A stretch of 63,266 bases of DNA, the filler included, from Deltaproteobacteria bacterium (GTDB taxonomy: Bacteria > JAUYMQ01), in assembly GCA_030698575.1 (NCBI GenBank). It is 13 parts of 13 records of this genome, joined end to end, with 100 filler letters (N's around TTAATTAATTAA, not from the genome) between each part and the next. Parts side by side here need not be neighbours in the genome. Positions count along the whole stretch, not along the records: positions 28,104 to 31,911 come from JAUYMQ010000398.1; 12 more parts are not named here. One strand, written 5' to 3'. Below the pieces are notes generated by a model, which saw only the letters and a program-made list of their open reading frames with translations, had not been told where the DNA came from and made no database searches. This document shows, piece after piece, positions 10,669 through 46,871 of the stretch (the stretch's first letter is position 1; the number at the start of each line of letters is the position of its first letter). The position numbers and the translations under genes were made by a program.

Positions 10669-10696
10669 TTGACATCCCCCGGGGGCGGTGATAACT
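10669..10696 (+). promoter_or_regulatory. Putative sigma70 promoter of argH
   Basis: TTGACA followed at suitable spacing by TGATAACT upstream of the argH start. Confidence 0.45.
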
Positions 10697-10763
10697 GCTA
10701 GGATTCTCGAATGTTTGGAGATTTTCCGGGGGCGCGACAACAGATGCGCGCCGGAGGCCGGGC

Positions 10764-21471: not shown

Positions 21472-22231
21472 TGCCGAAGCCGTGCGCGGCGAGGATCTCC
21501 GCCGCGCGGCTCCCCGTCAGGAAGGCCGCGAACTTCTCCGCCAGCGCCCGGTGGGGTGAAGCTGCCACCACCCCCGCTCCGTAAGTGATCGCGTGGCCCA
21601 CCGGGATTGGCACTTCGAACGCCACGCGCACCCCCGTTCGCCCCCTGGCGTCGGTGCGGTAGACGAAAGCCGCGTCGACCTCGCCCCGCTCGGTATAGAC
21701 CAGCACCTGCCGCACGTTCTCCCCAAAGACCATCCGCCGCTGCAAGGGCGCGTACAGCCCCGCGCGCTCCATCGCCGCTCGCGCGTAAATTCCGGCGGGC
21801 ACGTAGCCGGGATTTCCCATTCCGATGCGCGCGTACTGACGCTTCGTGAGATCGGCGAGCGCCGCCGGCCGCGCGTCGGAGGAAGCCGGCACGATCAGCA
21901 CGAGGCTGTTCGTCGCGAAGCGTCGCACCCCGGTGAATCGCTTTTTCCAGGCAGGCTCGTCGAACATCTCCACGCGCGCCGTCAGAAAGACGTCTATCGG
22001 CGCACCCCCCTCAATCTGCGCCATGAGCTGACCGGAACCCGCATAGGTCACCCTGGTCTTCGCGCCGTGGGCCTGCTCGAAGGCCTGAAGGATCGGATCG
22101 AGTGCGTCCTGCAGGCTCGACGCGGCCGCGATGGTCAGCTCGTCGGCCGCGCGAGCACTCACGGGAGAAAGCGCGCCGAGAATTGCGGCGACGGCGACGC
22201 CGATGATCAACCCCGTACGGATGGTTCGCAT
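21467..22231 (-). CDS. modA: Molybdate ABC transporter substrate-binding protein
   Basis: Signal peptide; AAASSL, GSGQL..QIEGGAP.DVF, VPAGIYA, ENVRQVL..GEVDAAFVY. Confidence 0.95.
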   Translation of the reverse strand: MRTIRTGLIIGVAVAAILGALSPVSARAADELTIAAASSLQDALDPILQAFEQAHGAKTRVTYAGSGQLMAQIEGGAPIDVFLTARVEMFDEPAWKKRFTGVRRFATNSLVLIVPASSDARPAALADLTKRQYARIGMGNPGYVPAGIYARAAMERAGLYAPLQRRMVFGENVRQVLVYTERGEVDAAFVYRTDARGRTGVRVAFEVPIPVGHAITYGAGVVAASPHRALAEKFAAFLTGSRAAEILAAHGFGK

Positions 22232-22251
22232 GCTTGTTCCTCGTTGAACTG

Positions 22252-22314
22252 TCAGGCGCCGATGCGCAGGCTCGTGGCCTTCACGATGGCCCATAGTTCG
22301 GCGCCCGCGGCAAT
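22252..22314 (-). CDS. C-terminal fragment of TOBE-domain protein (ModC/ModE-like)
   Basis: IAAGAELWAIVKATSLRIGA* fits a TOBE end; directly upstream of modA. Confidence 0.55.
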   Translation of the reverse strand: MAAGAELWAIVKATSLRIGA

Positions 22315-22416
22315 GGNNNNNNNNNNNNNNNNNNNNNNNNNNNNNNNNNNNNNNNNNNNNTTAATTAATTAANNNNNNNNNNNNNNNNNNNNNNNNNNNN
22401 NNNNNNNNNNNNNNNN

Positions 22417-22932
22417 CCGATGGTGATCCGGAACTGGGCCGAGCAGGGCGGGATCAACGTGATCCTCGCGACCATGGTCTTCATCGGCGCGCTCGCGGCC
22501 ATCATGTCGACGGCCGACTCGGTGCTGCTCTCGCTCGGAAGCGTCATCTCCGAGGACGTAGTCGGGAGCGACCGATACGATCCGAGGACCACGCGGCAGG
22601 GCAAGCTGGCCGCCGCGGCGCTTCTCATCCTCATGGTCGGGATCGCGGTGGCGCCGCGCATAACTCTCTGGCGTCTCATCGAGGTGAAGATGGAGGTGCT
22701 CATGCAGTGCGCACCGGCCTTCCTCCTGGGGGTGCACTCCCGGCGGCTGGAGGCCCGCACCGTATTCCTCGGCATCCTGGCCGGCTGCGCCGTCGCGCTC
22801 TGGGGCATGTGGACCGGAACGCCTCGCCTGGGGGGCGTGCACGTGGGCGTGATCGGCCTGGGCGTGAACCTGGCGGTCATTGGCGCCGGCCGCGCGCTGT
22901 CCCGCGGTGCGGTTTCGTCCAACGGCCTCTAG
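22417..22932 (+). CDS. Sodium:solute symporter family protein (partial)
   Basis: LAAIMSTADS motif, multiple TM helices. Confidence 0.9.
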   Translation, partial: PMVIRNWAEQGGINVILATMVFIGALAAIMSTADSVLLSLGSVISEDVVGSDRYDPRTTRQGKLAAAALLILMVGIAVAPRITLWRLIEVKMEVLMQCAPAFLLGVHSRRLEARTVFLGILAGCAVALWGMWTGTPRLGGVHVGVIGLGVNLAVIGAGRALSRGAVSSNGL

Positions 22933-23081
22933 GCGCGGATTGAATGTGCGCCGCTGATCAGGCTGTTCTTGACACGCATTCCCTTTTCAAGCGCGCCGTT
23001 CGCAGCACGGCCTCGCCCCGCAGGCTTGCCCCCGCACACATTTCCGCCCGCAGAACCAGTGAAAATTTTTTACCGCGGGTT

Positions 23082-23097
23082 TGGCACGGGCCTTGCT
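23082..23097 (+). promoter_or_regulatory. Sigma54 -24/-12 promoter
   Basis: TGGCAC-GGGCC-TTGCT, exact consensus, about 50 nt upstream of an RBS and ATG. Confidence 0.8.
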
Positions 23098-23145
23098 CTA
23101 GCTTCAGGAAGGAGTCAGCGAAACTGAAATCGGGAGGGACACAAG

Positions 23146-23328
23146 ATGAACTGCCAGACCCAAAGCTACCGGACAAGGAATCAGCGAGGGCCGACCCGGC
23201 TCGGCCAGATCGGGCACGGGTCCCGCCCCCGGCGCATCGGCGCCGTCGAGCGGTTCAAGGAAACCCTCTACGGGCTGGTCGACACGACGGCGCGCGAGCG
23301 CTTCGAGGCCCGCAAGCCCCGCTTCTAG
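23146..23328 (+). CDS. Small basic hypothetical protein (60 aa)
   Basis: GGGAGGG RBS, ATG, first ORF after sigma54 promoter. Confidence 0.5.
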   Translation: MNCQTQSYRTRNQRGPTRLGQIGHGSRPRRIGAVERFKETLYGLVDTTARERFEARKPRF

Positions 23329-23390
23329 CGGCGGCGCGGCCCCCCCGGCCCGCCGGCCCTGAGCCGGCGCGGACAAGACGGAGTGACACC

Positions 23391-23618
23391 ATGGAATGCT
23401 GCGCCTGCCACAACATGCTTCGCGAAGGGACATGGTTTTGCACCGAGTGCGGTAACCCCTCGTCACGCCCCTGCACGGGCTGTGGCGGCGAGATGGAGCC
23501 CGACGATCGCTTCTGCTCCAACTGCGGCTGTCCCGTCCGTTCGGCCGCACCCGCCCGTCGGACTGCCTCGACTCGCCCCAACGACCCGGCTCGCTCCCCG
23601 CTATTTCTTCCTCTATAG
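23391..23618 (+). CDS. Small double zinc-ribbon protein (75 aa)
   Basis: GGAG RBS; four CxxC pairs with FCTECG and FCSNCG knuckles. Confidence 0.75.
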   Translation: MECCACHNMLREGTWFCTECGNPSSRPCTGCGGEMEPDDRFCSNCGCPVRSAAPARRTASTRPNDPARSPLFLPL

Positions 23619-23728
23619 TCGAACCCGGCCCGGATGACGGATGCTCGCCGGAGAGGCGCGCGCCGGCGCGCCCTTTCGTCCGGAGAGTGCGCTGTATTCC
23701 GCGCCTGAGACGCCACAGGAGGTAGTCC

Positions 23729-24430
23729 ATGGCTTCGCGCGTATGTGTGATCACCGGCGTCGGACCGGGCAACGGCGCCGCCTTCAGCAAGCGCTTCGCC
23801 TCGGCCGGCTACCGGGTGGCGATGCTGGCCCGATCGGAGGATCGGCTGAAGGATCTCGAGAAGGCCATTCCAGGAACCCGGGGCTATGCAACCGATGTTT
23901 CCGATGCCGGGCAGGTAGGCGAGGCCTTCGCGCGCATCCGCAAGGATCTCGGCCCGGTCGACGTCCTTCTGCACAACGCGGGAAGCGGCCTGTTCGGCGA
24001 CTTCCTCCAGACGCCTCCCGAGATGTTCGAGGAGAGCTGGCGAGTGAACTCACTCGCGCTGCTTCTCTGCGGCCAGGAAGCCGTCCGCGACATGCAGAAA
24101 GCCGGTAGCGGCGCGATTGTCGTGACGGGCGCGACGGCCTCGCTGCGAGGCGGGGCCAGCTTCGCGGCCTTCGCATCCGCCAAGGCCGCCCAGAGATCGC
24201 TGGCCCAGTCGATGGCGCGGCAACTCGCCCCCCAGGGAATCCACGTGGCCTACGTCATCGTCGATGGCGTGATCGACATTCCCCGGACGAGAGAGTTTTT
24301 CCCCGATCGCCCCGACGAATACTTTCTGAAGCCTGATGCCATCGCCGAGACGGTTCATCACCTGGTGGAGCAGGACCGGTCGGCCTGGACTTTCGAGGTT
24401 GATGTACGTCCCTTCGGAGAGAAGTGGTAG
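23729..24430 (+). CDS. Short-chain dehydrogenase/reductase (atypical, FxxxK)
   Basis: TGVGPGNG, HNAG, TGATASLRG, FASAKAAQRSLAQS, GIHVAYVIVDG. Confidence 0.93.
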   Translation: MASRVCVITGVGPGNGAAFSKRFASAGYRVAMLARSEDRLKDLEKAIPGTRGYATDVSDAGQVGEAFARIRKDLGPVDVLLHNAGSGLFGDFLQTPPEMFEESWRVNSLALLLCGQEAVRDMQKAGSGAIVVTGATASLRGGASFAAFASAKAAQRSLAQSMARQLAPQGIHVAYVIVDGVIDIPRTREFFPDRPDEYFLKPDAIAETVHHLVEQDRSAWTFEVDVRPFGEKW

Positions 24431-24483
24431 CCTAAGGGAGGCGCCCGGAATCGAACCCGGGAGTCAAACCCTCGAGTCGAACC

Positions 24484-26355
24484 ATGGAACGTGCCCAGAT
24501 CATTGCGGTTCTTCAGGACACGATGGGAGGCCGGCTGCTCCCGACCACGATTGATCCGGCGCTCGCCCTCACCGACAGTGACATCGAGGCCCTCGCGGAA
24601 CTGGTGAAGGAGCTTCCGGTGAAGGCCGGCGGCATGATCATCCGCGAAGGAGACGAGGGCGATTCTCTTTTCATCGTAGCGTCAGGCAGCGTCACGATCA
24701 TCCGGATGTCGCCGGAGGGCGAGGAGCTGCCGGTGACCGAACTGGAGGCCGGGACGCTCTTTGGCGAACTGGCGCTCCTCGAGGGCGGGCGGCGCTCGGC
24801 CTCGGTGCGGGCCTCGAATGACACGATTCTTCTGCGTCTGGATCGGGCGCCCCTTCGTGAGCTGCTTGTCCAGCAAAGCCCCCTGGCCTACAAGCTGCTC
24901 TTCGCGCTGACCCTCCACGTGACGGCCCGTGTCCGCCAGAAGGACGTTCAGGAACTCGAGGCGCGCGCCCGTGCGTTGGAGGGTTTGGTCCAGGAGCGCA
25001 CCGAGGAGTTGCAGCGGCTGCTCGAGCGCGAGTCGATGATGAACCTGATCACGTCGGCAATCCGGGGACACCTGGATCTTGATCGGGTGCTCCAGACAAC
25101 GGTTGAGCAGGTCGGCCGGGCTGTTGGGGTGTCGCGCTGCCGGCTGGCGCTCTTCTCGCCCGGTACAGATGACCACTCCGTGGAGCATGAATACACGGCG
25201 CCCGGCGTCGCTTCGACAGTCGGACTCAAGTCGCCGGGGTTCAAGGCTATCGAGCCCGCGCTGAAGTTCATGATTGAGACGCGCCGCCCCTATGTCATCG
25301 GCGACGTGGGCGCCGATCCCCTCACCAAGAATCTGGGAAACGACTACCCCGAGTTCGTGCAGGCGCTGAAGGGCACCAGGTCGGTCCTCATCGTACCGCT
25401 GTTCTATGCCGACGAGTTCATCGGCGAACTGACGCTCTTCACCAGCGAGCCACATCGGTGGAAACAGGAGGAGCAGGACTTCGTCCAGGCCATCGGTGAC
25501 CAGGTCTCGGTGGCCATCAAGCAGTCCAAACTCTACTGGGATCTCGCCGAGCAGAAAGACCAGCTCTCCGAAGCGATCGAGGAACTCCAGCGCAAGGAGC
25601 AGCAACTCATCCAGTCGGAGAAGATGGCCAGCCTCGGCCAGCTTGTCGCAGGCGTCGCCCACGAACTGAACAATCCCATCAGCATCGTCTACGGTTTTCT
25701 CGGGCAGGTGAGCCGCCGGCTGAGCCTGTTGAGGGAAGTTCTCGAGCGCGGTCAGACGGTCGACGCGGACGTGTTCGAGGAGCTGGACGATATGCTTTCG
25801 CGGTCGAAGGAGGGGGCGCTTCGAACGAAGAATATCGTGAGCGACCTGCGCACCTTCAGTCGGCTCGACGAAGCCGAGTTCAAAGACGTCGATCTGCACG
25901 CGGGGCTCGAGAGCACGCTGCACCTGCTCGAGCACCGGCTCGGCGACCGCCTGACCGTTCACCGCAACTACGGCGACCTGCCGCCGGTGGCCTGCTATGC
26001 CGGGCAGATGAACCAGGTGTTCATGAATCTGCTTTCAAACGCCATCGATGCGATAGAACACAAGGGCGGGCCTGGAGACATCTATGTGCGGACCTGGGCG
26101 ATCGGGGATGAAGAAGGCCAGCAGCGGGTCGCGGTGAGCGTGCGCGACACGGGCACCGGCATCCCCCCTGACAAGGTCAGCCGGGTCTTCGATCCCTTCT
26201 TCACCACCAAGCCCATCGGACAGGGCACGGGGCTGGGCCTGTCGGTGAGCCACGGTATCGTGAGCAAGCACGGCGGCATCATCCGGGTGGAGAGCCGGAT
26301 GGGCGAGGGGAGCACCTTCACGGTGGAGCTTCCAATAGGCCCGCGAGCCGCATGA
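24484..26355 (+). CDS. Sensor histidine kinase, cNMP-binding + GAF + HisKA + HATPase
   Basis: FGELALLEGGRRSASV (cNMP); GAF LDRVLQTTV..VPL..W..EE; AGVAHELNNP H-box; NLLSNAID, DTGTG, FDPFFTTK, GTGLGL. Confidence 0.95.
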   Translation: MERAQIIAVLQDTMGGRLLPTTIDPALALTDSDIEALAELVKELPVKAGGMIIREGDEGDSLFIVASGSVTIIRMSPEGEELPVTELEAGTLFGELALLEGGRRSASVRASNDTILLRLDRAPLRELLVQQSPLAYKLLFALTLHVTARVRQKDVQELEARARALEGLVQERTEELQRLLERESMMNLITSAIRGHLDLDRVLQTTVEQVGRAVGVSRCRLALFSPGTDDHSVEHEYTAPGVASTVGLKSPGFKAIEPALKFMIETRRPYVIGDVGADPLTKNLGNDYPEFVQALKGTRSVLIVPLFYADEFIGELTLFTSEPHRWKQEEQDFVQAIGDQVSVAIKQSKLYWDLAEQKDQLSEAIEELQRKEQQLIQSEKMASLGQLVAGVAHELNNPISIVYGFLGQVSRRLSLLREVLERGQTVDADVFEELDDMLSRSKEGALRTKNIVSDLRTFSRLDEAEFKDVDLHAGLESTLHLLEHRLGDRLTVHRNYGDLPPVACYAGQMNQVFMNLLSNAIDAIEHKGGPGDIYVRTWAIGDEEGQQRVAVSVRDTGTGIPPDKVSRVFDPFFTTKPIGQGTGLGLSVSHGIVSKHGGIIRVESRMGEGSTFTVELPIGPRAA

Positions 26356-28103: not shown

Positions 28104-28799
28104 GTCCTGGTGTTCGAGGATCCGATCCCTCACGTAGCCGATCTCGTAGGCCCTCTTTGGCCTCTCCACCGAGAGCGCTCGAAGGAGAGCGTTCCACTCC
28201 CGGACCATCTTACGATGCCACGCTGGAGTGTTGGGGATCGATGACCCCTTGCGGCGCGGGTTGACGAGGATGAGGGGGTTCTTCCTGGCCATCGTCCCGA
28301 GGCTCATGTAGAGCCCAAGGTGCTGCTCGATGGTCGGGCGCAGCGCGCTCGCGTAGACGCCAGAGTACTCGCCGGTGCGCGTCACGTCGAGGCCGCGCCG
28401 CGTGATCTGCGCGAAGCTGACCGTGTAGGTGTCGCTCGGGTCCAGTGTCACCTTGACGTAGTTTCCCGCGCCGCGCTTGCCCTTGAGCTTGAGCTTGAAG
28501 CTCAGCCCGTCGCCGTGATCGAGGAATGTGTGCGCGCCGATCATCGCGGAGAGCCGCCCGGCGCCGCCGAGTTGGCGCAGGATCGTGGCGGCGACGCCCA
28601 CCGGGTTGCGCTTGACCTTGGACCGCACGAACGAAGCAGCCCTTCTCGCTCCCCTTGAGTCTATCTTCAGGCCCCCCGCGGCACGCTTGGCACCCCGTGC
28701 AACCTTGTCGTACGCGCCACGGGCGACCCACGCCACGGCTCCAGATCCAACAACCACGATGGGCATGGGGATATTCTTCGCTCTTCTGCTGCGCGCCAT
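28104..28799 (-). CDS. Basic virus-like protein with NP motifs and a phage-type globular domain (3' partial)
   Basis: GGGAGG RBS; domain TILRQLGG...AMIGA...VTLDPSDTYTV...GVY...GLYMSL recalled from phage hypothetical proteins; KRNP, RKNP, LVNP. Confidence 0.75.
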
Positions 28800-29030
28800 C
28801 TAAGCCTCCCCGTCCACGTCGAATACCAGCATCCCGGAGGGGTTGTCTCCATGTTTCATGCTGCGGAGCAGCGCTGCCCCTCGATTTTCGGGCCCTCGGC
28901 CTGAATCATAGCTGTACCGCACGATTCGGCCAAGAAGCCTGGCCCTGGGAGCGTCGAGGATCGCCACGCCGAGAACGCGACCGGCCTCCTCGATGATGCC
29001 GATCTGCATCTTGACCGTGGAATCACTCAC
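28800..29030 (-). CDS. Small hypothetical protein (virus-like contig)
   Basis: Overlaps upstream stop and abuts downstream start; same strand as all neighbours. Confidence 0.6.
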   Translation of the reverse strand: MSDSTVKMQIGIIEEAGRVLGVAILDAPRARLLGRIVRYSYDSGRGPENRGAALLRSMKHGDNPSGMLVFDVDGEA

Positions 29031-29277
29031 GATGCACCGTCACGGTAGGCTTCTCGATCTGGTCTTGAGCCTCGTGTAGCAGCCCTGATAATGCCCTGAA
29101 CACATCGCCTGCCTTTCCAGGCAGGCTGGACGATAGACTGTTGATGGCGCTCTCCGCGTAAGCCAGGCGATCGAGCAGCGGGATGGCCTCGTCCCGAAGC
29201 ACTTCCGACGCTCCCTCTAGCTTCCCCGCGATGCTCTCGGCGACGCCCATGAGAATGTTCTTCACTAGCGGGTTCAT
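29023..29277 (-). CDS. Small helical hypothetical protein (virus-like contig)
   Basis: ATGA overlap with upstream gene; MNPLVKNIL start. Confidence 0.65.
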   Translation of the reverse strand: MNPLVKNILMGVAESIAGKLEGASEVLRDEAIPLLDRLAYAESAINSLSSSLPGKAGDVFRALSGLLHEAQDQIEKPTVTVHRE

Positions 29278-30005
29278 CGCTTCACCGCGACGTAGCCGAC
29301 GCCCAGGATGCCAGCAGCTCCGGCCAGCTTGACCCACATCGGAATCATGCTCCACACATCGCCGATGCCCTCGACGGCGGTTGCCGCACCCTCAACCGCC
29401 ACGTTCCCGCCAGGGAGCCAGGAGATACCGTAGGCCGCGTCTCCGTGCTCCATGGCGAGGGCGACGTCTTCACGCTCTCCCTGCTCGGCGAGCCACGCAG
29501 CGGAAGTTGAGCCGGCCTCGGCCGCAGCCTCTGCCTTCGCCTCTTCGGCGATGGCGGCCGTGGCCTGGACCGTGGATGCGCCGGAAGAACGCTCGACGTC
29601 TCCGCCGTAGGACTCGAGAACGTCCAGGGCGCGAGCCAGTAGCCGTTGTGCCTCCGACTGGCCAGGGTGACCAGCGGGGAAGTTCGCGATGGCCTCGTCC
29701 TCCGCCGTGGCGAATGCGTGCTCGGCCTGACCGATCTTGCCCTGGCTCGCGAGGCTCGCCACATCTTCCGTGCGCCGAGACAGTCGGTCGCCTTGCGTGC
29801 TTGACGGGCCGCGCCAGGCGAACTCCTCGCGTCGAGCCTCCCGGATGAACTCAATATCGACGGCAGGGCCGCCCTCGGCCGAGGCCACGTCGGCATCGGT
29901 CTGGTAGGCTCCTCCGGTAATCTTCGACAGCCAGCTCTCGCCGCCGAGACGGGCGGATCCGAGCGCAGGATGGCGCCAAAGCTGGACAGGCTGCACGTAT
30001 CGCAT
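29274..30005 (-). CDS. Ala/Glu-rich hypothetical protein with C-terminal membrane anchor
   Basis: ATG with GGAG RBS; ends WVKLAGAAGILGVGYVAVKR. Confidence 0.7.
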   Translation of the reverse strand: MRYVQPVQLWRHPALGSARLGGESWLSKITGGAYQTDADVASAEGGPAVDIEFIREARREEFAWRGPSSTQGDRLSRRTEDVASLASQGKIGQAEHAFATAEDEAIANFPAGHPGQSEAQRLLARALDVLESYGGDVERSSGASTVQATAAIAEEAKAEAAAEAGSTSAAWLAEQGEREDVALAMEHGDAAYGISWLPGGNVAVEGAATAVEGIGDVWSMIPMWVKLAGAAGILGVGYVAVKR

Positions 30006-30027
30006 CGTTCTCTCCGTCCGCCTCGAG

Positions 30028-30828
30028 TTAGCGTGGTCTGCGCTCGGGACACTTACGCCAGTGCTCAGGCACCGTGTATGATCGCACGAAGACGCCCCTT
30101 CCTGGGACGCAAGCCTTAGCTCTCTTGAGCTTTCGCTTCTTCGGCTTCCTTCCGAAGTCGAAGGACGCATCAGGGGGTGCTGGGCCGAAGTCAAAGGATG
30201 TATCCGAGGGAGGTTCGAATCCAAGGCTCAAGCGTCGGGCTGCTCTACGGGCTCCTCGGCGCCCCGTCCCTGTCCGGCGAGAGATGAGCACCGTCTTCTT
30301 CTTTCTCCTGACGCGCTTCATGGGCCCGAGTCTCTTCAGCGCCATGCGTATGTCGAGCAGCGACAGCTTTTCCCCGTCAGCGTCGGTCGCCCTGAACGGT
30401 GCCCCGGCGTCTGCGCGTTCCTTCGCCGCCCAATATGCCGCCTCGGGGTCATAGAAGATGCGCTTCTCGACCGTGTAGGGCATAGGGGGGATGACGAACT
30501 CCTCGCGCACTCGTCCAGAGATGACCTTCACGCGACCAGGGTATTCACGCTTCACAAAGGCTTTGATCGCCTTGCGAGCTGGGGCTACTGACCTGTAGAT
30601 CGTTGGCGTGCCGACTGGATGTCCCTGCTCGTCGATGCCGAACTCAACGCCCTCTAGTTCCTGCCGGTCAAGGTGCATAGCCGTAACGACTCGGACGCGC
30701 TTCGGCTTGGTCCTCCGGCGCTTGAAGCCGATGGTTGCATCGAGGGAGCCTGGGACGATCCAATGCTCCAGGAGACGGTTGACCGCCTTCTGGATGAGTT
30801 CCGGGTTGGATCTACGCACGGCTCCCAT
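30028..30828 (-). CDS. Highly basic hypothetical protein (virus-like contig)
   Basis: MGAVRRSNP start with GAGG RBS; Arg/Lys tracts; duplicated D(T/A)SFDFG; C-terminal VRSYTVPEHWR. Confidence 0.7.
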   Translation of the reverse strand: MGAVRRSNPELIQKAVNRLLEHWIVPGSLDATIGFKRRRTKPKRVRVVTAMHLDRQELEGVEFGIDEQGHPVGTPTIYRSVAPARKAIKAFVKREYPGRVKVISGRVREEFVIPPMPYTVEKRIFYDPEAAYWAAKERADAGAPFRATDADGEKLSLLDIRMALKRLGPMKRVRRKKKTVLISRRTGTGRRGARRAARRLSLGFEPPSDTSFDFGPAPPDASFDFGRKPKKRKLKRAKACVPGRGVFVRSYTVPEHWRKCPERRPR

Positions 30829-30836
30829 GGGAACTT

Positions 30837-31571
30837 CTAGCCTCGGTTGAGCTCCGCGGCGAGCTGCTGCGCCTCTCCTAGCGCGATCTGATAGGCGCCT
30901 CGATCCGTCTTGCCAACGCTCAGGCGTTCCCATACACGGATGATCTCGGCGACGCCCCGGGTGCGCGTTGAGATCATCTTAGGCACGCCCTCGAATCCAG
31001 GCGCGAGACGAACCACCGCCACCCTGCGGTAGTTTCCGAACCTGCCCTTCCTCGGGGAGCCGGCCGACATCACGATGTACCTCCCGTCCGTTCGGGTTCC
31101 GGGGTTCCTGCCGCGCATTCTGGCCTCGGCAACCGAGTGCCTGTCCAGTTCCGATGCGAGCCGGTTCAGCGCGGCCAGGGCCTTCCTGGCGTCCCCGGCG
31201 TAGATCGCCTTGCGCACCGCCCAGGCGTCCTTGTTGGCTGACGCGGGGAGATGGGGGTTCCGGAGCCGTGGCCGCCGGCGCTTGATGCGCCCACCTTCTC
31301 GGCCAGCCTCTTCCGCCCCGTAGGCCGCGTCGGCGTACTTGCCTCCCCGCACCCTCTCCATGTCCCGTACGGCCCGGTCGAGTTCTCGCTCGATCTTGAC
31401 GGCGCGCTGCACGTTGCCGCCCAAGCGGTAGTAGGCTGCGGCCTCGGCGAGCCTCCGGATGCGGTGCAGCGGGCCACGCTTCTTGCCGCCGGGGCCTCGC
31501 TTGGGATTGCTCCGAGAGCGCATAGCGCAACTCGAACGGCGACCCACGCGCGCCATCGGTCGTCCAGTCAT
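30837..31571 (-). CDS. Arg-rich modular protein with three NP motifs (virus-like contig)
   Basis: TGATG coupling with AGGAG RBS; RSNP, LRNP, GRNP; last module YRRVAVV...MISTRTRGV...WERLSVGKT recalled from phage hypothetical proteins. Confidence 0.7.
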   Translation of the reverse strand: MTGRPMARVGRRSSCAMRSRSNPKRGPGGKKRGPLHRIRRLAEAAAYYRLGGNVQRAVKIERELDRAVRDMERVRGGKYADAAYGAEEAGREGGRIKRRRPRLRNPHLPASANKDAWAVRKAIYAGDARKALAALNRLASELDRHSVAEARMRGRNPGTRTDGRYIVMSAGSPRKGRFGNYRRVAVVRLAPGFEGVPKMISTRTRGVAEIIRVWERLSVGKTDRGAYQIALGEAQQLAAELNRG

Positions 31572-31911
31572 CACGTTCTCCTGCGGCGCGATACGCGCCT
31601 CTCAGCGCTGCGAGGTGAAAAGGCTCTCCACAGCGTCCATGTTGCCGACAGGGCTCCCACTCCGGCAAGCGCCAGGGTGGCTGGCCAAAACCACGCTGGC
31701 GGACTCCCGTACGGTGACCATCGCGCCAGGGTGTTTCCGTGCTGCTCAAGCTCCACCTCGGGTCGCAGGAAGGGGAGGGCCGGCTTGCTCGCGTCCGATG
31801 ACGCGGCTTGCTGCTCTCCGCCCGCGAGAAGGCTACCGAGGTCGATACTGATCTCCGGCGTTACCGCCGTTCGAAACACCACGCGGGCGCCCTGGAGGCC
31901 GGCGCCGAGCA
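31571..31911 (-). CDS. Hypothetical protein with C-terminal membrane anchor (5' partial)
   Basis: Ends WFWPATLALAGVGALSATWTLWRAF followed by basic tail. Confidence 0.6.
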
Positions 31912-32121: not shown

Positions 32122-32480
32122 ACTGGCGGGTCGTCGTTCAGCCGGGCCGACGCGCGTCTGCGTCGGGACCCGCGCAGGTGAGCCAACTCTCTGAAAACAG
32201 AGGGATCGGCATGGGTGCGGCGTTGTCCCGGTGCGGGGTGCGTGACCGCTCCCGGGAGGAAAAAATCAGGCGGGAAGGGGCTGCCGGGACGTCAGACGAC
32301 GCAAAATTGTCGCCCTCGGTGACGAAATTCAGCTTCTGCTCCGACATACCGCGGTGTCTGGCGCCTGTCACGAAAGTGTATCTGCCGGACTCGCCGCGCG
32401 TCGGGGGTGCATCTGCAGAGATGGCAGACGCGGATGGATCAACTCAAATCAATCAATTCATATCAATTAACTCATTTCAG

Positions 32481-33221
32481 TTAACACATCGAGTAGCCTC
32501 CGTTCACGCTGATGGCCTGCCCGGTGATCCAGGAAGCGCGGCCGGACAGGAGGAACACGATCATGTTGGCAATGTCCAGCGGTTCGCCGAGCCGGCGCAG
32601 GGGATAGCTGCGGATCCATTTCGCTTCCATCTCCGGCGTCAGGAAGGCGGTCATCGCGGTCTTGGTGGTGCCGGGGCAAACCACGTTCACATTAATCGCG
32701 TTGCGACCGTGTTCCTTGGCGATGGATTTCGAGAAGGCGACAACAGCGCCCTTGGCCGCCGCGTAGGAGGCCATCTGCCCTTCGCCCACCTTTGCGGCGT
32801 CGCTTGCGATGTTCACGATCTGGCCGCCGTTCTGGCTTGCCATGATCGGGAGCGTGGCATGGCAGCAATTGAGCACGCCGTAGAGGCAGACGTCGATTTC
32901 GCGTTTCCAGCTCGCGGGTTCCGTCTCGACGAAACGACCGCCGGCCAGAACGCCCGCGGCGTTCACCAGCCCGTCGATGCGTCCGAACCGGCCGTGGATG
33001 TCGCCGATAGCGGCCCTGACGTCATCGAAGCGCGTCACGTCCAGACCGACGCCTGTCGCGTCGCCGCCCGTTTCCCTGGCGGCGGCCTCGGCGGCCGATG
33101 CCTCCCGATCGATCACCACGACCCGAGAGCCTTCCTTGGTCAGCAACGCCGCTGTCGCCTTTCCGATGCCCGAGGCGCCTCCGGTAACGAGCACTACCCT
33201 GTCTTTCAATAGAAGATCCAT
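32481..33221 (-). CDS. SDR oxidoreductase (FabG/BadH-like)
   Basis: TGGASGIG, NAAG, NIASDAA, YAAAKG, VCPG, ITGQAISVNGG. Confidence 0.93.
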   Translation of the reverse strand: MDLLLKDRVVLVTGGASGIGKATAALLTKEGSRVVVIDREASAAEAAARETGGDATGVGLDVTRFDDVRAAIGDIHGRFGRIDGLVNAAGVLAGGRFVETEPASWKREIDVCLYGVLNCCHATLPIMASQNGGQIVNIASDAAKVGEGQMASYAAAKGAVVAFSKSIAKEHGRNAINVNVVCPGTTKTAMTAFLTPEMEAKWIRSYPLRRLGEPLDIANMIVFLLSGRASWITGQAISVNGGYSMC

Positions 33222-33236
33222 GAGCGGTCTTTCCTT

Positions 33237-33299
33237 CACAATTGCGGCGCTTGTAGCGCCGCGGGCCTGCACAGTTGCGGCGCTTGCAGCGCCGCGGGC
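33237..33299. repeat. Tandem 30-bp duplication containing GC hairpins
   Basis: CACA(A/G)TTGCGGCGCTTG(T/C)AGCGCCGCGGGC at 33237 and 33270. Confidence 0.75.
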
Positions 33300-36386: not shown

Positions 36387-36535
36387 TGCTTTCCTCCCTC
36401 TCGTATTGTCCCCATGGGCTCCGCGCGGGCGCCCTGCCGGCCGTGCTGAAAGCTCAACATATCATGAGGGTCCTCCGCGCCGGGGTCGCGGGGCGAGCGG
36501 CCTCCTAAGCTTACCCGCTTTATCAGCTTTACACA

Positions 36536-36564
36536 TTGACACCCGGGGGGGGCTCACCTATGCT
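36536..36564 (+). promoter_or_regulatory. Sigma70 promoter of coaBC
   Basis: TTGACA-17 nt-TATGCT. Confidence 0.7.
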
Positions 36565-36631
36565 TTTTTTGAGCGCGGGTGATCCGCCGCCGGCAGGGAC
36601 CGCCGGCCCGGTTTCTCGCGTGGAGTCATGC

Positions 36632-37858
36632 ATGTCCTCCGGAAGCGTCCTGTCGGAAAAGCGAATTCTCCTTGGCGTCAGCGGGGGTATTGCGGCCTAC
36701 AAGGCGGCCGAGGTGGTCAGATCCGCGATGCGCGCGGGCGCGGAGGTTCGCGTCATCCTCACTTCTGGCGGCGCCAGGTTTGTGACGGCCCTGACATTCC
36801 AGGCCCTCACCCAGAATCCCGTCTCCACCAATCTCTTTGACCCAGGACAGGAGCAGGAGATCGGCCATATTGATCTGGCCGACTGGGCGGATCTTCTTCT
36901 CATCGCGCCTGCGACGGCCAACGTGATCGCCCGCCTGGCGATGGGCATGGCCGACGATCTGCTCACGACGGTGGCGCTCGCCACGCGAGCCCCGCTTGTT
37001 CTCGCCCCCGCGATGAACGTCCACATGTACCGTCACGCCGCCGTCCAGCGAAATATCAAGGAGCTCCGGAACGGGGGCGCCCACGTCGTCGATCCCGCCG
37101 AAGGAGAGATGGCTTGTGGCCATGTCGGGGAAGGGCGGCTCGCCGACACGGAGGATATTCTGGATGGGGCGGCCCGGGCGATCTCGACGCAGGATCTGTC
37201 CGGCGTTGCACTCCTCGTTACGGCGGGCCCTACCGAGGAGCCCATAGACCCGGTGCGCGTGATTTCGAACCGCTCTTCGGGAAAGATGGGATACGCGCTG
37301 GCGCGGGCCGCCTGGCGGCGAGGCGCTGATGTGACGCTTATCTCGGGACCGGTGGATCCCGGGCTGCGCGTTCCCCGGGGGGTGAGGCTGAGGCGCGTCG
37401 AAACGGCGCTGGAGATGGGCGATGCGGTGCTGGAGCACTATCCCAAGGCTTCGGTCGTCGTGATGGCCGCCGCCGTGGCGGACTGGACGCCCGATTCGGT
37501 GTCTTCCTTGAAGATCAAGAAGGGCGAAGGAAATCTCCGTCTCGATCTGAAACAAACGCGGGACATCCTTTCGCAACTCGGCCGTGCGAAAGGCGATCGC
37601 CTTCTCGTCGGGTTTGCGGCCGAGACCGATCGCGTGATCGAAAATGCTCGAAAGAAGCTCGAAGGAAAGAACCTGGATCTTGTTGTGGCCAACGACGTAA
37701 CCGTTGATGGCGCCGGGTTCGGCGTGGACACGAACCAGGTTGTCATTCTCGATCGGGACGGGACTGAACGGCCGCTACCGCTCCTTTCCAAGGAACGCAC
37801 CGCCGATGCGATTCTCGACTCTGTTTCCGCGCTTCTGTCGCCCCGGGCGCGGTCTTAG
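36632..37858 (+). CDS. coaBC: Bifunctional PPC decarboxylase / PPC synthetase
   Basis: GGIAAYK, APATAN, PAMN, ACG..G.GRL, TAGPT.E.IDPVR..SNRSSGKMG, VGFAAET. Confidence 0.97.
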   Translation: MSSGSVLSEKRILLGVSGGIAAYKAAEVVRSAMRAGAEVRVILTSGGARFVTALTFQALTQNPVSTNLFDPGQEQEIGHIDLADWADLLLIAPATANVIARLAMGMADDLLTTVALATRAPLVLAPAMNVHMYRHAAVQRNIKELRNGGAHVVDPAEGEMACGHVGEGRLADTEDILDGAARAISTQDLSGVALLVTAGPTEEPIDPVRVISNRSSGKMGYALARAAWRRGADVTLISGPVDPGLRVPRGVRLRRVETALEMGDAVLEHYPKASVVVMAAAVADWTPDSVSSLKIKKGEGNLRLDLKQTRDILSQLGRAKGDRLLVGFAAETDRVIENARKKLEGKNLDLVVANDVTVDGAGFGVDTNQVVILDRDGTERPLPLLSKERTADAILDSVSALLSPRARS

Positions 37859-37889
37859 GAAGTACTCGCCGCAGGGCAGAAGTCTTGAC

Positions 37890-39206
37890 GTGCGCCTTCG
37901 TCGCGCGCTGACGGCTGTCCTGGCTGCCGTGCTTCTTTTTTCCTCGGTCCAGGAGCCTGACTCCGCAACGCGGAATGCCGTTCACCGGATGGTGATAAAC
38001 GGAACAATCAACCCCGCCACATCCGACTTTCTCAGAAAATCGATCGAAGCCGCCCGTCAGGACGGGCGTGCCCCCTTGCTCATCGAGCTCGACACGCCGG
38101 GAGGCATCCTGGTGAGCACGCAGAACATGGTCGAGCAGATCCTCAATAGCCCTGTCCCGATCGTGGTCTTCGTCTCGCCGAAGGGGGCGCGGGCTGCCAG
38201 CGCGGGTACGTTCATTCTGATGTCGGCCCACGTGGCCGCCATGGCGCCCGGAACCCGGGTGGGGGCCGCCCATCCCGTATCCGCGGGCGGGGGGGAGATG
38301 GGGAAGGACATGGCGGCGAAGGTGGAGGAGGACACGGCGGCCTTCATCGCGAGCATCGCGAAGCAGCGGGGGCGGAACGCCGAATGGGCGGTGAGCGCCG
38401 TGCGCGAATCAAAGGCGATTACCGATGATGAAGCGCTGAAGCTCAACGTGGTGGACCTCGTGGCGGCGAACACGAAGGCATTGCTCGGCCTCATCGACGG
38501 AAAGACCGTCAAGCTCGACGGTGAAGATCTGACGCTTCGCACGAAGGACGCAAAGCTCGTAACGCACGAGATGAGCTTCATCAACCGAATCATCGACACG
38601 ATCTCGCATCCCAACATCGCCGTTCTACTCTTTCTCGGCGGCCTCCTGGGCCTCTACGTGGAGTTCACCCAGCCCGGTCTGATCTTCCCCGGGGTGGCCG
38701 GAGTCCTCTCCATCATACTTTTCGGCCTCGCAGCGGAGGTTCTTCCCATGAACTCCGCCGGCTTCCTGTTAGTCTTGCTTGGTGTTGTCCTTCTCGTCGC
38801 GGAGGTTTTTGTCACCAGCTTCGGGCTGCTCTTCACAGGCGGGATTATCTCGCTGACGCTCGGCCTTCTTATCGTGTTCGATACCCCCGCCGAATCGGAT
38901 CTCCGGGTATCCTTCTGGTCGGTCCTGTTTCCGGCGGTCCTCGGGGTGAGTCTCTTCGGCGGGGTTGTGGCCTACGGCGTGACGCGGAGCCTTCTCCGGC
39001 CCCAGCGCAGCGGGATCGAAGGGTTTATAGGCACCCGGGGTGAGGCGCGAAGCGACCTTTCGACGGGAGGCGGAAAAGTTTTCATCGTCGGCGAGTGGTG
39101 GGATGCCGTCAGCGAAGAGCATATCCAAACGGGCGAGCCGATCGAGGTGATTGGCCTCGATGGCATGGTTCTCAACGTGAAAAAAGTGAAGGAGGATTCA
39201 AAGTGA
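37890..39206 (+). CDS. nfeD: NfeD membrane-bound serine protease (ClpP class)
   Basis: LDTPGG, AASAG, GAAHPV, TM region, C-terminal OB fold GEWWDA; start uncertain. Confidence 0.92.
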
Positions 39207-39958
39207 GCCCCTGGCTGATTTTCGTAGGAGTTGTCACTCTGCTTTTCATTTCCGGGGTCCGGATCTTCTACGAGTACGAGCGCGGCGTTGTCTTCAGGCT
39301 CGGCCGTCTGTCGGCCATGAAGGGCGCCGGATTCCGCTGGATCATTCCGGGCGTCGACCGCGTCGTGCGGGTGGATCTCCGGATTGTGACAATGGACGTG
39401 CCGTCGCAGGACGTGATCACCCGAGACAACGTCACGATCAAGGTGAATGCCGTTGTCTACTTCAGAGTGCTCGATCCGAACAAGGCCACCATCGCGGTGA
39501 ATAACTATCTCTATGCCACCAGTCAGCTGGCTCAGACGACCCTCCGTTCGGTCCTGGGCGAATCGGAGCTGGATGAGCTGTTGACCAGCCGCGAGACGAT
39601 CAACCATAAGCTGCAGGAGATCCTCGACCGGCAGACCGACGCCTGGGGGATCAAGATCTCACAGGTGGAAGTGAAGCACATCGATCTGCCGCAGGAAATG
39701 CAGCGCGCCATGGCGCGCCAGGCGGAAGCGGAGCGTGAGCGCCGCGGGAAGGTCATTGCCGCCGAGGGAGAGTATCAGGCGGCGGAGCGGCTCAACGACG
39801 CCGCCATGATCATGTCCAAGAACCCGATTACCATTCAACTGCGCTACCTTCAGACGCTGGGGGAGATCGCCTCCGAGACCAATTCGGTCACGCTCTTCCC
39901 CATCCCAATCGACATCATCCAGGGCTTCCTGGATATGAAGAAGAACATCGGGGCCTGA
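39203..39958 (+). CDS. Slipin/stomatin (SPFH) family protein
   Basis: [55 protein letters not shown]. Confidence 0.96.
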
Positions 39959-40065
39959 GGCGCTTNNNNNNNNNNNNNNNNNNNNNNNNNNNNNNNNNNN
40001 NNNNNNNNNTTAATTAATTAANNNNNNNNNNNNNNNNNNNNNNNNNNNNNNNNNNNNNNNNNNNN

Positions 40066-40503
40066 CCTCAGCGAGATCAATTCATCGGGCTCCGCCTTCG
40101 GGTCCCCCTGCCAATCTGGAACCGCAATCAGGGCCGGATCGCCGAGGCGCGCGCCGGCCAGAAGCGTTCGGCGGCGAAACTAGCCGCCGCCGAGCTTGCG
40201 GTGCGCCGAGAGGTGGAGGCGGCGTGGTCTCAGGTGAAGCGGCTCGAGGAGGCGGTGGAGGCCTACCGCGGTGAGTTGATAGGGCTCTCTGATCGCAACG
40301 TTGCCCTCATCAAGTCCGGTTACGCCGACGGGCTGGTGGGAATTACCGAACTCGTGCAGGCCCAGCAGCAGTCCGCGAACATTCGCCAGCGCTATTACGG
40401 GGCACTGGGTCAACTGTGGAAGGCCCGCATCGATCTGCAGACGGCCAGCGTTTCCGACCCTCTCGTGATCGAAACGACCGAGAAACAGCAGGAGAAACCA
40501 TGA
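40066..40503 (+). CDS. TolC/CzcC-like outer membrane efflux protein (partial)
   Basis: PLPIWNRNQGRIAEA motif; upstream of MFP and RND genes. Confidence 0.88.
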   Translation, partial: PQRDQFIGLRLRVPLPIWNRNQGRIAEARAGQKRSAAKLAAAELAVRREVEAAWSQVKRLEEAVEAYRGELIGLSDRNVALIKSGYADGLVGITELVQAQQQSANIRQRYYGALGQLWKARIDLQTASVSDPLVIETTEKQQEKP

Positions 40504-41684
40504 AGATGCCCGTCAAGATAAAGTTCGCCCGCTTGCTTGGGGGCATCGCATTCGTCCTCGCGGCGCTCCTCGTGATGCCGGCCGGCCCGAAAGCCCACGA
40601 GGGTCACACGGCTGCGCCCGGGGGCGAAAGCGCCTCGCTCGCGGAGGGTCTGGTGCGCATCAGCCCCGAGGCGCGCAAGAATCTCGACCTCCGGACGGAA
40701 GCTGCCGAGCTGCGGCCCATCGAGAAGGTCCTCACGACGGTAGGGCGAATTGCGCCCATCCCTGAGCGATCGGGCGCTGTCTCGAGCCGCATCTCGGGCC
40801 GCGTTGTCGATCTGATGAGCCACGAAGGCGCGAAGGTCGAGCGCGGCCAGCCGATGGTGCGAGTGGAAAGCCGCCAGCTCGGGAGCCCGCCGCCCAGCGT
40901 CACCTATCGCGCGCCGCTATCGGGAGTCGTGACCGATCGGCACGTGGTCGTCGGCGACAGTGTGGAACCGGCCACCCATCTGTTCGAGCTGGCTGATCTG
41001 AGGGAGGTCTACGCCGTAGCGAAGGTCTTCGAAGGACAGATCGGCCAGGTTCGGCAGGGTGCCAAGGCGAGGGTGCGCGTGGACGGCTATTCGGATGAGG
41101 TCTTCGAGGGATCGATCGAGCGGACGGCAGGTGAACTCGACAGGACATCGGGGAGCCTTGATGTGTACGTGCGTCTGGTGAACGAGAAAGAACGCCTTCT
41201 TCCGGGAATGACGGCCTCGGTGGCTATCGTAATTGCCGAATCCGATGTAGCGGTGACGATTCCCGAGGCGGCCGTCCTGGGAGATTCAGGACGCAACTTC
41301 GCCTTCGTGCAGGGAGAGGATCCGCTCAGCTTCGAGCGCAGGGAACTTGTTCTGGGCCTCGCGGACGATCGCTACCAGGAGGTGATCGAGGGAATCCTCC
41401 CGGGCGACGAGGTGGTCGTGCGAGGGAATTACCAGCTTCAGTACATCCCCGGCTCGCCGGCCTCCAAGAACGACGAGCACGAGGAACAAACGGGTACGAA
41501 GGCTCTGGACAAGGTCGACGTGGATCACGAGGCCTCGGCGGGCCAGGAGCCCGCCTCCGGGTCTACGCCGGGGCCCGGCCAGGCGCGATGGGTATGGGCC
41601 GCCGGGGCGGTAGGAATTCTCGCAATCCTCTGGCTCGGAGTCCGGGCGCGTCGCGCTAGACACTCCTCCGTCCGGGAGGCCTAG
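40500..41684 (+). CDS. Heavy-metal RND periplasmic adaptor (CzcB/CusB-like)
   Basis: Signal peptide + HEGH; APLSGVV, LFELADL, LLPGM; extra C-terminal hydrophobic helix. Confidence 0.92.
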
Positions 41685-41686
41685 AC

Positions 41687-44600: not shown

Positions 44601-44773
44601 CCTCTGCATCGACTCAATGCATGATTCGTTAATCGCGCTCGCGGAGCGACTCATCGCGAATGGACGCGCCGGCAGGGACGATCGAATCGAGGCCGAACTA
44701 CGCCAACAAAAGGCCGCGCTCTATCTCGCCTATCGTCCCGATCCGAGTCCATGCCAATTGTGAGCTCTCCACC

Positions 44774-46843: not shown

Positions 46844-46871
46844 GCCGCCTGTGGAGAGAGGGGTCAGATCC

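Follow-up and report, generated by a model that had tools for sequence, protein, structure and literature searches.

In our opinion the contig at positions 28104-31911 of the window (the whole stretch of DNA that was analysed, 63,266 nucleotides with filler) is a piece of some mobile element not yet characterised; the likeliest candidate is a virus of the groundwater bacterium to whose metagenome bin the contig was assigned. We put the probability of this reading at roughly 0.55 and assign the element to no particle type. The contig looks like a piece of a mobile element because its only family match is to a module of phages and plasmids, and also because the joint-and-module architecture of the protein carrying that match recurs in virus-like late operons of two IMG/VR genomes and of one further locus. 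Three of its seven proteins, P1, P5 and P6, are hyper-basic and resemble beads on a string, with small modules, most of them helical or alpha+beta, set off by short basic-x-Asn-Pro joints. Like the mobile origin, the DNA binding, co-transfer and processing of the contig products discussed below are what the sequence suggests, not what was observed.

The 3,808 bp in question are one entire contig, since runs of N with the TTAATTAATTAA spacer flank it on both sides; as 12 such spacers are present, the window holds 13 contigs. Unitigs from two runs of a single study span it with 100% identity and a word depth of 4.3-9.5, and they show neither a joint nor a loose end over it. Neither long repeats, nor a terminal overlap, nor a tRNA or other Rfam RNA was found on it. 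Its GC content is 0.654, against 0.624-0.672 in the other contigs of the window. A comparison of tetranucleotide profiles with the bin had been proposed together with the original prediction; it gave r = 0.943, within the 0.922-0.975 of the other contigs, and hence the contig is no outlier.

Seven translationally coupled minus-strand ORFs fill the contig, which bears out the earlier observation of seven overlapping or nearly abutting genes on one strand. From the upstream end they are P7 (31882-31574, 103 aa), P6 (31574-30840, 245 aa, pI 11.6), P5 (30828-30031, 266 aa, pI 11.1), P4 (30005-29277, 243 aa, Ala-rich and acidic with pI 4.7), P3 (29277-29026, 84 aa, acidic), P2 (29030-28803, 76 aa) and P1 (28799-28104, at least 232 aa, pI 11.3). 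The genes at either end are not complete: the frame of P7 runs open as far as the upstream contig end, so that the protein is possibly longer, and the other contig end cuts the 3' end of P1. In the same order the junctions are GTGATGA, a gap of 8 nt, a gap of 22 nt, ATGA (the ATG of P3 overlapping the stop of P4), an overlap of 8 nt and TAGATG. GC3 is 0.67-0.84 and exceeds GC2 in all seven genes; the four host-type controls have 0.78-0.85, and P2-P5 and P7 (0.67-0.77) lie below them. Five alternative frames were tested, and four lack the coding pattern (GC3 below GC1 or GC2). The fifth, on the plus strand at 31251-31911, has a GC3 of 0.73 over a GC2 of 0.64, and the GC3 measure does not dismiss it. 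Based on the GC3 pattern, on the ATGA, GTGATGA and TAGATG couplings and on the recovery of the same sequence from two runs, we regard the seven genes as real.

The richness of three proteins in Arg and Lys, noticed in the original prediction, is confirmed: R+K amounts to 18.5% in P1, 23.7% in P5 and 23.3% in P6, with pI values of 11.1-11.6. The two C-terminal ends of hydrophobic plus basic residues are likewise present. P4 closes with IPMWVKLAGAAGILGVGYVAV (29283-29345, minus strand; Kyte-Doolittle 19-mer 1.59) followed by KR, and P7 has a weaker segment, AWFWPATLALAGVGALSAT (31640-31696, minus strand; 1.20), followed by the Arg-rich tail RAFSPRSAERRVSRRRRT. Both are predicted tail-anchored membrane proteins of the same operon, for which a place in a virion membrane, a role at an assembly site or one in lysis would be candidates. 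In size and basic tail P7 would fit a holin, but it has one weak hydrophobic segment only; it matches no holin family, and no endolysin was found on the contig. P5 carries two SFDFG motifs near its C-terminus.

Pfam, NCBIfam and PADLOC gave no family match for any of the seven proteins, and PHROGs gave none for P2-P7. P4, P5 and P6 are singletons that match only themselves among 5.8 billion clusters or 1.84 billion representatives (for P5, by phmmer against the latter); atlas models of P5 and P6 are of low confidence (pLDDT 0.49 and 0.62) and gave no usable match. Searches returned no relatives of P2 and P3, tblastn of P7 against phages found nothing, and P2-P7 have no match in about 1.1 Mb of related loci, nor by BLAST or profile in the look-alike genomes discussed below. 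Thus the description of the genes as orphans holds for P2-P7 but not for P1, which contains the family phrog_9437. Within this 3.8-kb fragment, profile searches (Pfam, PHROGs, NCBIfam) identified no capsid, packaging ATPase, terminase, portal, integrase, relaxase or replication gene, in agreement with the earlier remark that capsid, packaging ATPase and integrase are not visible. The jelly-roll capsid and the FtsK/HerA (A32-type) ATPase that were to be looked for have been sought, and none of the seven proteins matched a family of either kind in the same searches. Peptidase families, including zincin-like ones, are also absent from the seven.

P1 consists, in order, of a basic N-terminus with the hydrophobic stretch IPMPIVVVGSGAVAWVARG (28716-28772, minus strand; Kyte-Doolittle 1.41), a joint, the phrog_9437 module, a second joint and a further module. 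The phrog_9437 module, about 100 aa long, is the sole recognisable part of the contig. It comprises residues 69-167 (28299-28595, minus strand) and matches the family profile at near full length (positions 3-98 of 98; E 1.8e-18, 67.9 bits). AlphaFold2 predicts an alpha-alpha-beta5-alpha fold for it (pLDDT 80.3, pTM 0.72, with values below 50 at residues 1-7). PHROGs assigns the family no function; some GenBank phage records label members 'putative YahA protein' or 'cytidyltransferase'. By tblastn the module occurs in 43 GenBank phage records, in which every named phage is tailed or unclassified. It also occurs in 563 plasmid records, of which 452 are conjugative. The phages include Tunturiibacter phage Tunturi_5 (309 kb), an uncultured phage of 485 kb, KVP40 and phages of Rhizobium, Agrobacterium, Sinorhizobium and Rhodobacter; in one plasmid that was inspected, the module lies amid a run of small hypothetical genes and adjoins a RelE/ParE pair. 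In the collections searched it is confined to phages and plasmids. It is 33-51% identical to 27 relatives. Most members of the family are stand-alone genes of about 100 aa, whereas P1 embeds the module between a basic region at its N-terminus and another module on the C-terminal side, with a basic-Asn-Pro joint on either side.

It is these joints that P1, P5 and P6 have in common. The three proteins contain 7 Asn-Pro (NP) dipeptides against 0.8 expected, and the seven proteins together (1,249 aa) contain 9 against 1.2; none of 1000 shuffles reached either count. Sites with a basic run before NP number 6 in the 1,249 aa against 0.4 expected (again 0 of 1000 shuffles), and all six are in P1, P5 and P6. 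In 18 host-type ORFs of the window, taken as a control, there are 16 NP against 10.7 expected. On the minus strand, P6 has three joints, RS-NP (31503-31508), LR-NP (31254-31259) and GR-NP (31101-31106), which divide it into four modules. P5 has one at its very start, MGAVRRS-NP (30802-30807). In P1 the joint KR-NP (28602-28607) stands three residues ahead of the module and SLGTMARK-NP (28275-28280) directly after it. We take the joints to be probable domain boundaries and, possibly, processing sites. The Asn-Pro bond can be cleaved by the Asn side chain, as described for RsgI anti-sigma factors, reovirus mu1 and aquareovirus VP5 (PMC10328401). Those autocleavage sites are in folded turns of specific domains, whereas the NP of the contig are in basic, probably flexible linkers, in keeping with the model values below 50 at residues 1-7. 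Against this view, a basic run followed by Asn-Pro may simply be a favoured domain boundary.

The closest likeness to P1 is found in two complete IMG/VR genomes, G001 and G002 (41-43 kb, with DTR, 100% complete by CheckV), and in a 199-aa protein on a 6.9-kb metagenome contig (L141). Among the 23 of 32 IMG/VR loci that were examined, G001 and G002 are the two in which a called ORF has the module amid several basic-NP joints; three further loci (L020, L033, L034) have one or two such sites, in upstream extensions of uncertain validity. The same module is recognised in the 532-aa protein of G001 and the 758-aa protein of G002 (hhalign probability 99.1, 45-48% identity). As in P1 it has basic-NP joints on both sides there and in L141, in the pattern 'KRNP...module...SLG[TS]M..NP'. 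The surroundings of the module in relatives are rich in NP as well: 8 against 1.6 expected in the G002 protein (0 of 1000 shuffles), 4 against 1.5 in that of G001, 6 against 1.2 in P0011 and 3 against 0.3 in the L141 protein.

The likeness extends to gene arrangement, since each of the three loci has a one-strand operon with small C-terminally anchored proteins and a hyper-basic protein. The operon of G001 and G002 is long: ahead of the module protein come a hyper-basic NP protein and seven small proteins, each with a TM helix and basic residues at its C-terminal end, and after it come beta-rich ORFans and an SLT transglycosylase. The P1-like gene of L141 adjoins four beta-rich ORFans as well as an M15 peptidase that has an anchor at its C-terminus. 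However, the G001 and G002 proteins carry an HNH nuclease at the N-terminus and a large domain at the C-terminus, neither of which is seen in P1, and the neighbouring genes in all three loci have no detectable kinship with P2-P7. The tie between the contig and these loci is therefore one promiscuous module plus a shared style. Nor is P1 any closer to G001 and G002 than to tailed phages, given that its module is 46-47% identical to the tailed-phage copies; the identity to unplaced metagenome proteins is 52%.

If the contig derives from a mobile element, the basic linkers of P1, P5 and P6 would bind the DNA of that element, and the three proteins would accompany it, whether packaged in a particle or synthesised as soon as it enters; they would afterwards bring their modules into the new cell. 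The analogues that we have in mind are the internal or core proteins of virions and the polyvalent proteins of Iyer et al. 2017 (PMC5512222), multi-domain products of phages and conjugative elements for which packaging or transfer along with the DNA is predicted and, in some, processing. The presence of several unrelated small modules in one mobile-element polypeptide is common to both, and the idea of packaging or co-transfer would suit basic jointed proteins. On the other hand, P1, P5 and P6, at 232-266 aa, are small and have none of the published domain repertoire, and the zincin-like metallopeptidase (MPTase) frequent in polyvalent proteins is absent from the seven proteins. Polyvalent proteins join two or more domains of the conflict repertoire; P1 has one recognisable mobile-element module besides parts without assignment, and P5 and P6 have no recognisable domain. 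Several points weigh against the mobile-element reading as a whole: the contig has no mobile-element hallmark gene and no protease, P2-P7 have no detectable relative in the look-alikes or elsewhere in what was searched, and the tetranucleotide profile does not stand out from the bin.

Could the contig instead come from an ordinary, possibly large tailed phage, co-binned or integrated, as its accessory region (early genes or internal proteins)? Orphan gene runs are typical of accessory regions in tailed phages, the module stands alone in Tunturi_5, the 485-kb phage, rhizobial and Rhodobacter phages and KVP40, and the genomes of the IMG/VR module loci L018 and L011 match a terminase. P2-P7 are, however, shared by none of those phages, the gene is a stand-alone one of about 100 aa without basic-NP joints in the tailed phages where it was read, and the contig shows no tailed-phage gene, which in our opinion makes this explanation unlikely. 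The original prediction saw here the structural region of a dsDNA virus, unclassified and of the tailless jelly-roll kind with a membrane, with the anchored proteins in an internal membrane and the basic ones as virion components. Tectiviridae and Corticoviridae (PRD1, PM2) indeed have one-strand runs of small membrane-anchored proteins and lack tail genes. On the contig, too, no tail gene was recognised, and its one-strand run with the plausible anchor of P4 and the weak one of P7 would suit such a virus. So would the absence from G001 and G002, the only genomes with the P1 architecture, of matches to four tailed-phage models (Terminase_6N, Phage_portal, Phage_capsid and TerL_ATPase, each 0 of 2), their row of seven anchored proteins, their conserved beta-rich proteins of 247, 219 and 176 aa, and the beta-rich ORFans of L141. 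Against this, the contig has no recognisable jelly-roll capsid, no FtsK/HerA-type ATPase and no tectiviral or corticoviral PHROG match, P2-P7 show no kinship with any protein of G001, G002 or L141, and the module otherwise occurs in tailed phages and plasmids. To our knowledge hyper-basic jointed proteins are not a trait of Tectiviridae or Corticoviridae. The PRD1 capsid model gave 0 of 2 in G001 and G002, a blank that is uninformative because the control search matched no genome. The 247-aa candidate capsid reached an AlphaFold2 pLDDT of 31.4, so that a jelly roll is not demonstrated, and the segment of P7 is weak. G001 and G002 also hold giant ORFs (1517 aa and about 1200 aa), a 732-aa protein with matches to families of virion structure and tail spikes, and a HerA-type ATPase whose only GenBank-phage relative sits in the non-structural block of a tailed phage. 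With a contig free of hallmarks, P2-P7 unmatched and the named phages with the module tailed, we regard the tailless structural region as possible but quite unlikely; what survives of the original prediction is a viral or mobile origin, supported by the phage and plasmid module and by the architecture recurring in IMG/VR genomes.

That the contig is an accessory cassette, similar to a leading region, from a conjugative plasmid or an integrative element seems to us very improbable. The many conjugative plasmids among the carriers and the small genes and RelE/ParE pair around the module in one of them speak for it. Yet all three basic-NP contexts that were inspected (G001, G002, L141) show cell-wall hydrolases and virus-like operons, searches of part of their ORFs returned no relaxase or type IV secretion families, and the contig has no plasmid gene. 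Least probable of all is a lineage-specific chromosomal island, such as a decayed prophage remnant, without present mobility. GC content and tetranucleotide profile inside the bin range and the absence of a mobility gene would agree with it, but the GC3 of P2-P5 and P7 lies under that of the host-type controls, the module is one of mobile elements, the seven genes are intact and coupled (apart from the cut 3' end of P1), and the contig assembled apart from the chromosome.

The mobile-element reading, which we prefer, can be carried further, though only as a speculation that we regard as improbable. The contig, G001, G002 and perhaps L141 would then form an unclassified soil and groundwater virus lineage, without the tailed-phage hallmark profiles tested and without a match to the jelly-roll models tried. 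Its hyper-basic NP-jointed proteins would be genome-bound core polyproteins, packed together with the DNA and cut at N|P joints, much as adenovirus cuts its core precursors at consensus sites, to release small effector modules such as phrog_9437 on entry, and its tail-anchored proteins would lie in an internal membrane.

Outside the contig the phrog_9437 module circulates as a stand-alone gene in phages and conjugative plasmids and as one bead of larger multi-module proteins. A further case is L144, a locus without a Pfam match, where the module lies inside a 1926-aa multi-module protein with repeated joints of the ESLDE type.

The stretch is divided by 12 runs of N's, each set around TTAATTAATTAA, into 13 contigs, and positions 28104-31911 coincide exactly with one of them (3,808 bp; GC 0.654, compared with 0.624-0.672 in the other twelve). 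Its minus strand is filled by seven ORFs, from P7 upstream to P1 downstream. The junctions read GTGATGA for P7/P6, an 8-nt gap for P6/P5, a 22-nt gap with GGAG before it for P5/P4, ATGA for P4/P3, an 8-nt overlap for P3/P2 and TAGATG for P2/P1. The original prediction spoke of seven genes on one strand that overlap or nearly abut, which is indeed the case, as no gap exceeds 22 nt, and these genes are one translationally coupled operon. The frame of P7, the first gene, is open to the contig end, and P1, the last one, is cut by the opposite end; hence the contig is a fragment of a larger entity.

The coding nature of these ORFs can be judged from base composition. GC3 is higher than GC2 in all seven (GC3 0.67-0.84), and it amounts to 0.78-0.85 in four host-type genes of neighbouring contigs. 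This pattern is absent from four of the five alternative frames checked on the contig; in the fifth, on the plus strand at 31251-31911, GC3 is 0.73 and GC2 0.64, so that by this measure it may be coding as well. Two promoter-like sites were found where shuffled sequences predict 0.4, while terminator-like sites show no excess, and the contig has no long repeat, terminal overlap or RNA gene that we could find. In one groundwater-metagenome study, two runs yielded unitigs that cover it at 100% identity with a word depth of 4.3-9.5; run X3 gave no cover, and no RNA run is listed as containing it. No join, loose end, sign of a circle or unitig reaching past the contig ends was seen among these unitigs, which are short and therefore silent on extension. 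The tetranucleotide profile had been proposed as a check of the contig against its bin, and it turned out to be ordinary (r 0.943, with 0.922-0.975 for the other contigs), which fits a host-adapted element and a chromosomal island alike.

Three of the seven products, P1, P5 and P6, are very rich in Arg and Lys (18.5%, 23.7% and 23.3%, respectively; pI 11.1-11.6), as had been noticed from the sequence at the outset. The same is true of the two products described as ending in a hydrophobic segment plus basic residues: P4 is acidic and has a C-terminal hydrophobic segment of 21 residues followed by KR, and P7 has a weaker segment followed by an Arg-rich tail. Both are probably tail-anchored membrane proteins; they may belong to the membrane of a virion or to a site of assembly, or take part in lysis. 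None of the seven proteins has a match in Pfam, NCBIfam or PADLOC. A search of 5.8 billion protein clusters with P6 and P4 returned nothing other than the queries, whereas P1 has eight partial relatives there; phmmer, run over the complete set of 1.84 billion representatives, found P5 itself alone. P5 and P1 used as single queries gave no match in IMG/VR, P2, P3, P6 and P7 gave none by tblastn against 50,697 GenBank phage records, and the ESM Atlas gave no usable match for P6 and P5. The claim that these proteins are orphans thus stands for P2 to P7 within the searches made, but not for P1, which holds a known module. As a separate observation, S-F-D-F-G occurs twice, six residues apart, in the C-terminal region of P5 (about 30151-30198), ahead of a Lys/Arg run; LDFPFG forms the C-terminus of a 332-aa protein (32248-33246) of G001, one of two complete IMG/VR viral genomes with a P1-like protein. 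Possibly it is a short motif for docking.

Residues 69-167 of P1 match phrog_9437, a PHROG family of unknown function, over its full length (E 1.8e-18). The module is present in 43 GenBank phage records, which include an uncultured 485-kb phage, Tunturiibacter phage Tunturi_5, Vibrio phage KVP40 and phages of Rhizobium, Agrobacterium, Sinorhizobium and Rhodobacter; where we read the phage gene, it stands alone and encodes about 100 aa. Plasmids account for another 563 records, of which 452 are typed as conjugative; IMG/VR has the module at 32 loci, and at least 106 stretches of metagenome contain it. Its profile has no match among PDB chain sequences. The P1 copy is 45-48% identical to those of G001 and the second complete genome, G002, 46-47% to tailed-phage copies and 52% to unplaced proteins. 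In two unrelated phage loci (L001 13495-16747 and L011 about 10300-11611) the stand-alone gene adjoins genes whose products, by eye only, resemble GHKL-type ATPases with HExxH motifs, which may be a conserved gene pair.

What sets the basic proteins apart is the placement of Asn-Pro. In P1 to P7 nine of 25 Asn residues precede Pro (1.2 expected), and six of these nine have Arg or Lys no more than two residues before them (0.4 expected); neither count was reached by any of 1000-2000 shuffles. Eighteen host-type ORFs of the window contain, for comparison, 16 Asn-Pro pairs with 10.7 expected. All six basic-Asn-Pro sites, to which we refer as joints, fall within P1, P5 and P6, at apparent module boundaries. 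In P1, KR-NP lies three residues N-terminal of the phrog_9437 module and SLGTMARK-NP directly C-terminal of it; P5 has RRS-NP at its start, and three sites split P6 into four parts. The same joint grammar surrounds the same module in three proteins from the cluster database (P0008, P0009 and P0011) and in a 199-aa protein of the 6.9-kb locus L141 (MIRR-NP, module, GRA-NP, PKA-NP). It recurs in the multi-module proteins of G001 (532 aa; 4 Asn-Pro pairs, 1.5 expected) and G002 (758 aa; 8 pairs, 1.6 expected, reached by none of 1000 shuffles). Among the 23 of 32 IMG/VR loci surveyed (L024-L032, whose statistics repeat those of L023, were left out), a called ORF with several joints round the module occurs only in these two genomes; L020, L033 and L034 have one or two basic-Asn-Pro sites each, within putative upstream extensions that are not validated as genes.

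Direct terminal repeats are present in G001 (42,670 bp) and G002 (40,998 bp), and completeness is rated at 100% for each. The gene for the multi-module protein belongs, in either genome, to a long one-strand operon of the same order: a transglutaminase-like protein (recognized by eye only), seven consecutive small proteins with a TM helix and basic residues at the C-terminus (L004 4192-8036, which is G001, and G002 21895-26004), a hyper-basic Asn-Pro protein of 211-240 aa, a small HTH protein, and the multi-module protein itself, built of HNH, joints, phrog_9437, a joint and a C-terminal domain. Genes further downstream encode an SLT transglycosylase and three conserved beta-rich proteins (247, 219 and 176 aa). 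The seven small proteins (39-56% identity between G001 and G002 pairs) share the N-terminus M-[IY]-x-x-[LV]..P..R-R-x-x-R-G-L-G and have 2-4 basic residues after the TM helix; this N-terminus resembles a signal for targeting or processing. L141 encodes, beside its P1-like protein, four beta-rich ORFans and a 5'-open protein that contains four Asn-Pro pairs and TM segments. An endonuclease VII-like gene and the gene of a C-terminally anchored M15 peptidase are also present, as is an IS605-type TnpB transposase gene (4976-6816; PF01385, PF07282), whose start lies within the 3'-terminal part of the P1-like gene.

How close is the contig to these look-alikes? By tblastn of its seven proteins against 34 loci (534 kb) and 80 metagenome loci (549 kb), and by Smith-Waterman comparison with shuffles and hhalign against the proteins of G001, G002 and L141, matches were obtained for P1 only; P2 to P7 have no match in G001, G002, L141 or the other approximately 110 loci, and none of the remaining contigs of the window matches any of the three. 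A likeness seen by eye between the N-terminus of P7 and proteins of G001 (93 aa) and G002 (100 aa) received no support from hhalign. Common to both sides are a P1-type protein built as joint, module and joint, and an operon in which a hyper-basic Asn-Pro protein occurs together with small tail-anchored proteins. We rate the link as weak at the level of sequence and as moderate at that of architecture.

In our opinion, the contig is best read as a piece of a mobile element, for which a virus is the most probable kind; to this statement as a whole we give a probability of roughly 0.55. The original prediction was more specific and saw in it the structural region of a tailless membrane-containing virus. 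The mobile and virus-like character stands; the structural module is not borne out, and we consider it improbable. Six-frame searches of G001 and G002 found Terminase_6N, Phage_portal, Phage_capsid and TerL_ATPase in neither genome, as a tailless virus would have it; the PRD1 capsid model matched neither genome, but its control matched nowhere either. An AlphaFold2 model of the 247-aa candidate capsid of G001 is unusable (pLDDT 31.4). The 578-aa HerA/DUF87-type ATPase of both genomes could have hinted at tailless packaging, and we dropped this idea: its single relative in GenBank phages, annotated as HerA helicase, lies among the non-structural genes of a tailed phage that has a terminase, portal, capsid and tape measure of its own, and therefore is no evidence of tectivirus-like packaging. 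Nor are the two genomes simply small-gene viruses. G001 has ORFs of 1517 aa (36392-40945; L127) and about 1200 aa (41294-42670 plus 1-2401, across the terminal repeat; L037), neither of which has a PHROG or Pfam match, and a 732-aa protein of G002 matches virion structural and tail-spike PHROGs.

P1, P5 and P6 look like small versions of polyvalent proteins, the name of Iyer et al. 2017 (PMC5512222) for proteins of several modules that phages and conjugative elements encode. These are predicted there to be packed into virions or co-transferred with DNA, sometimes after proteolytic processing. The phrog_9437 module is also contained in a 1926-aa protein (L144 8615-14392, on a 78-kb metagenome contig; no Pfam match at E <= 0.01), whose apparent modules are parted by twelve or more acidic peptides of the ESLDE(A/E) type. 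Because of their extreme basic charge, it is suggested that P1, P5 and P6 bind the DNA of the element. The joints may be cutting sites, by analogy; the contig encodes no protease. Self-cleaving Asn-Pro bonds are described for RsgI anti-sigma factors and reovirus mu1/VP5 (PMC10328401), where they lie within folded turns, whereas those of the contig lie in linkers. Jointed multi-module proteins of mobile elements are thus known, and what is new is their small, hyper-basic, basic-Asn-Pro-jointed form on an otherwise orphan fragment.

If this reading is true, a compact form joins the proteins thought to be sent into a new host with DNA, and the contig supplies six exact candidate cleavage sites in them. 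Two complete viral genomes of 41-43 kb with no recognisable packaging or capsid genes are, in our view, worth structural study. For now, the contig chiefly illustrates the viral or mobile 'dark matter' that a groundwater bin can contain, and it should not be counted as bin chromosome before coverage is compared.

Two observations concern other contigs of the window. Argininosuccinate lyase (ArgH, 10764-12161) is at most 62% identical (best 58-62%) to the best 80 of 597 confirmed stretches in 185,579 species genomes, and the top matches among these 80 are MAGs scattered over several phyla; therefore, the bin has no close relative among the best 80 of 597 matches in this collection. At 44660-48371 two ORFs follow each other, the first of unknown family (727 aa) and the second (487 aa) resembling, by eye only, a DDE transposase.
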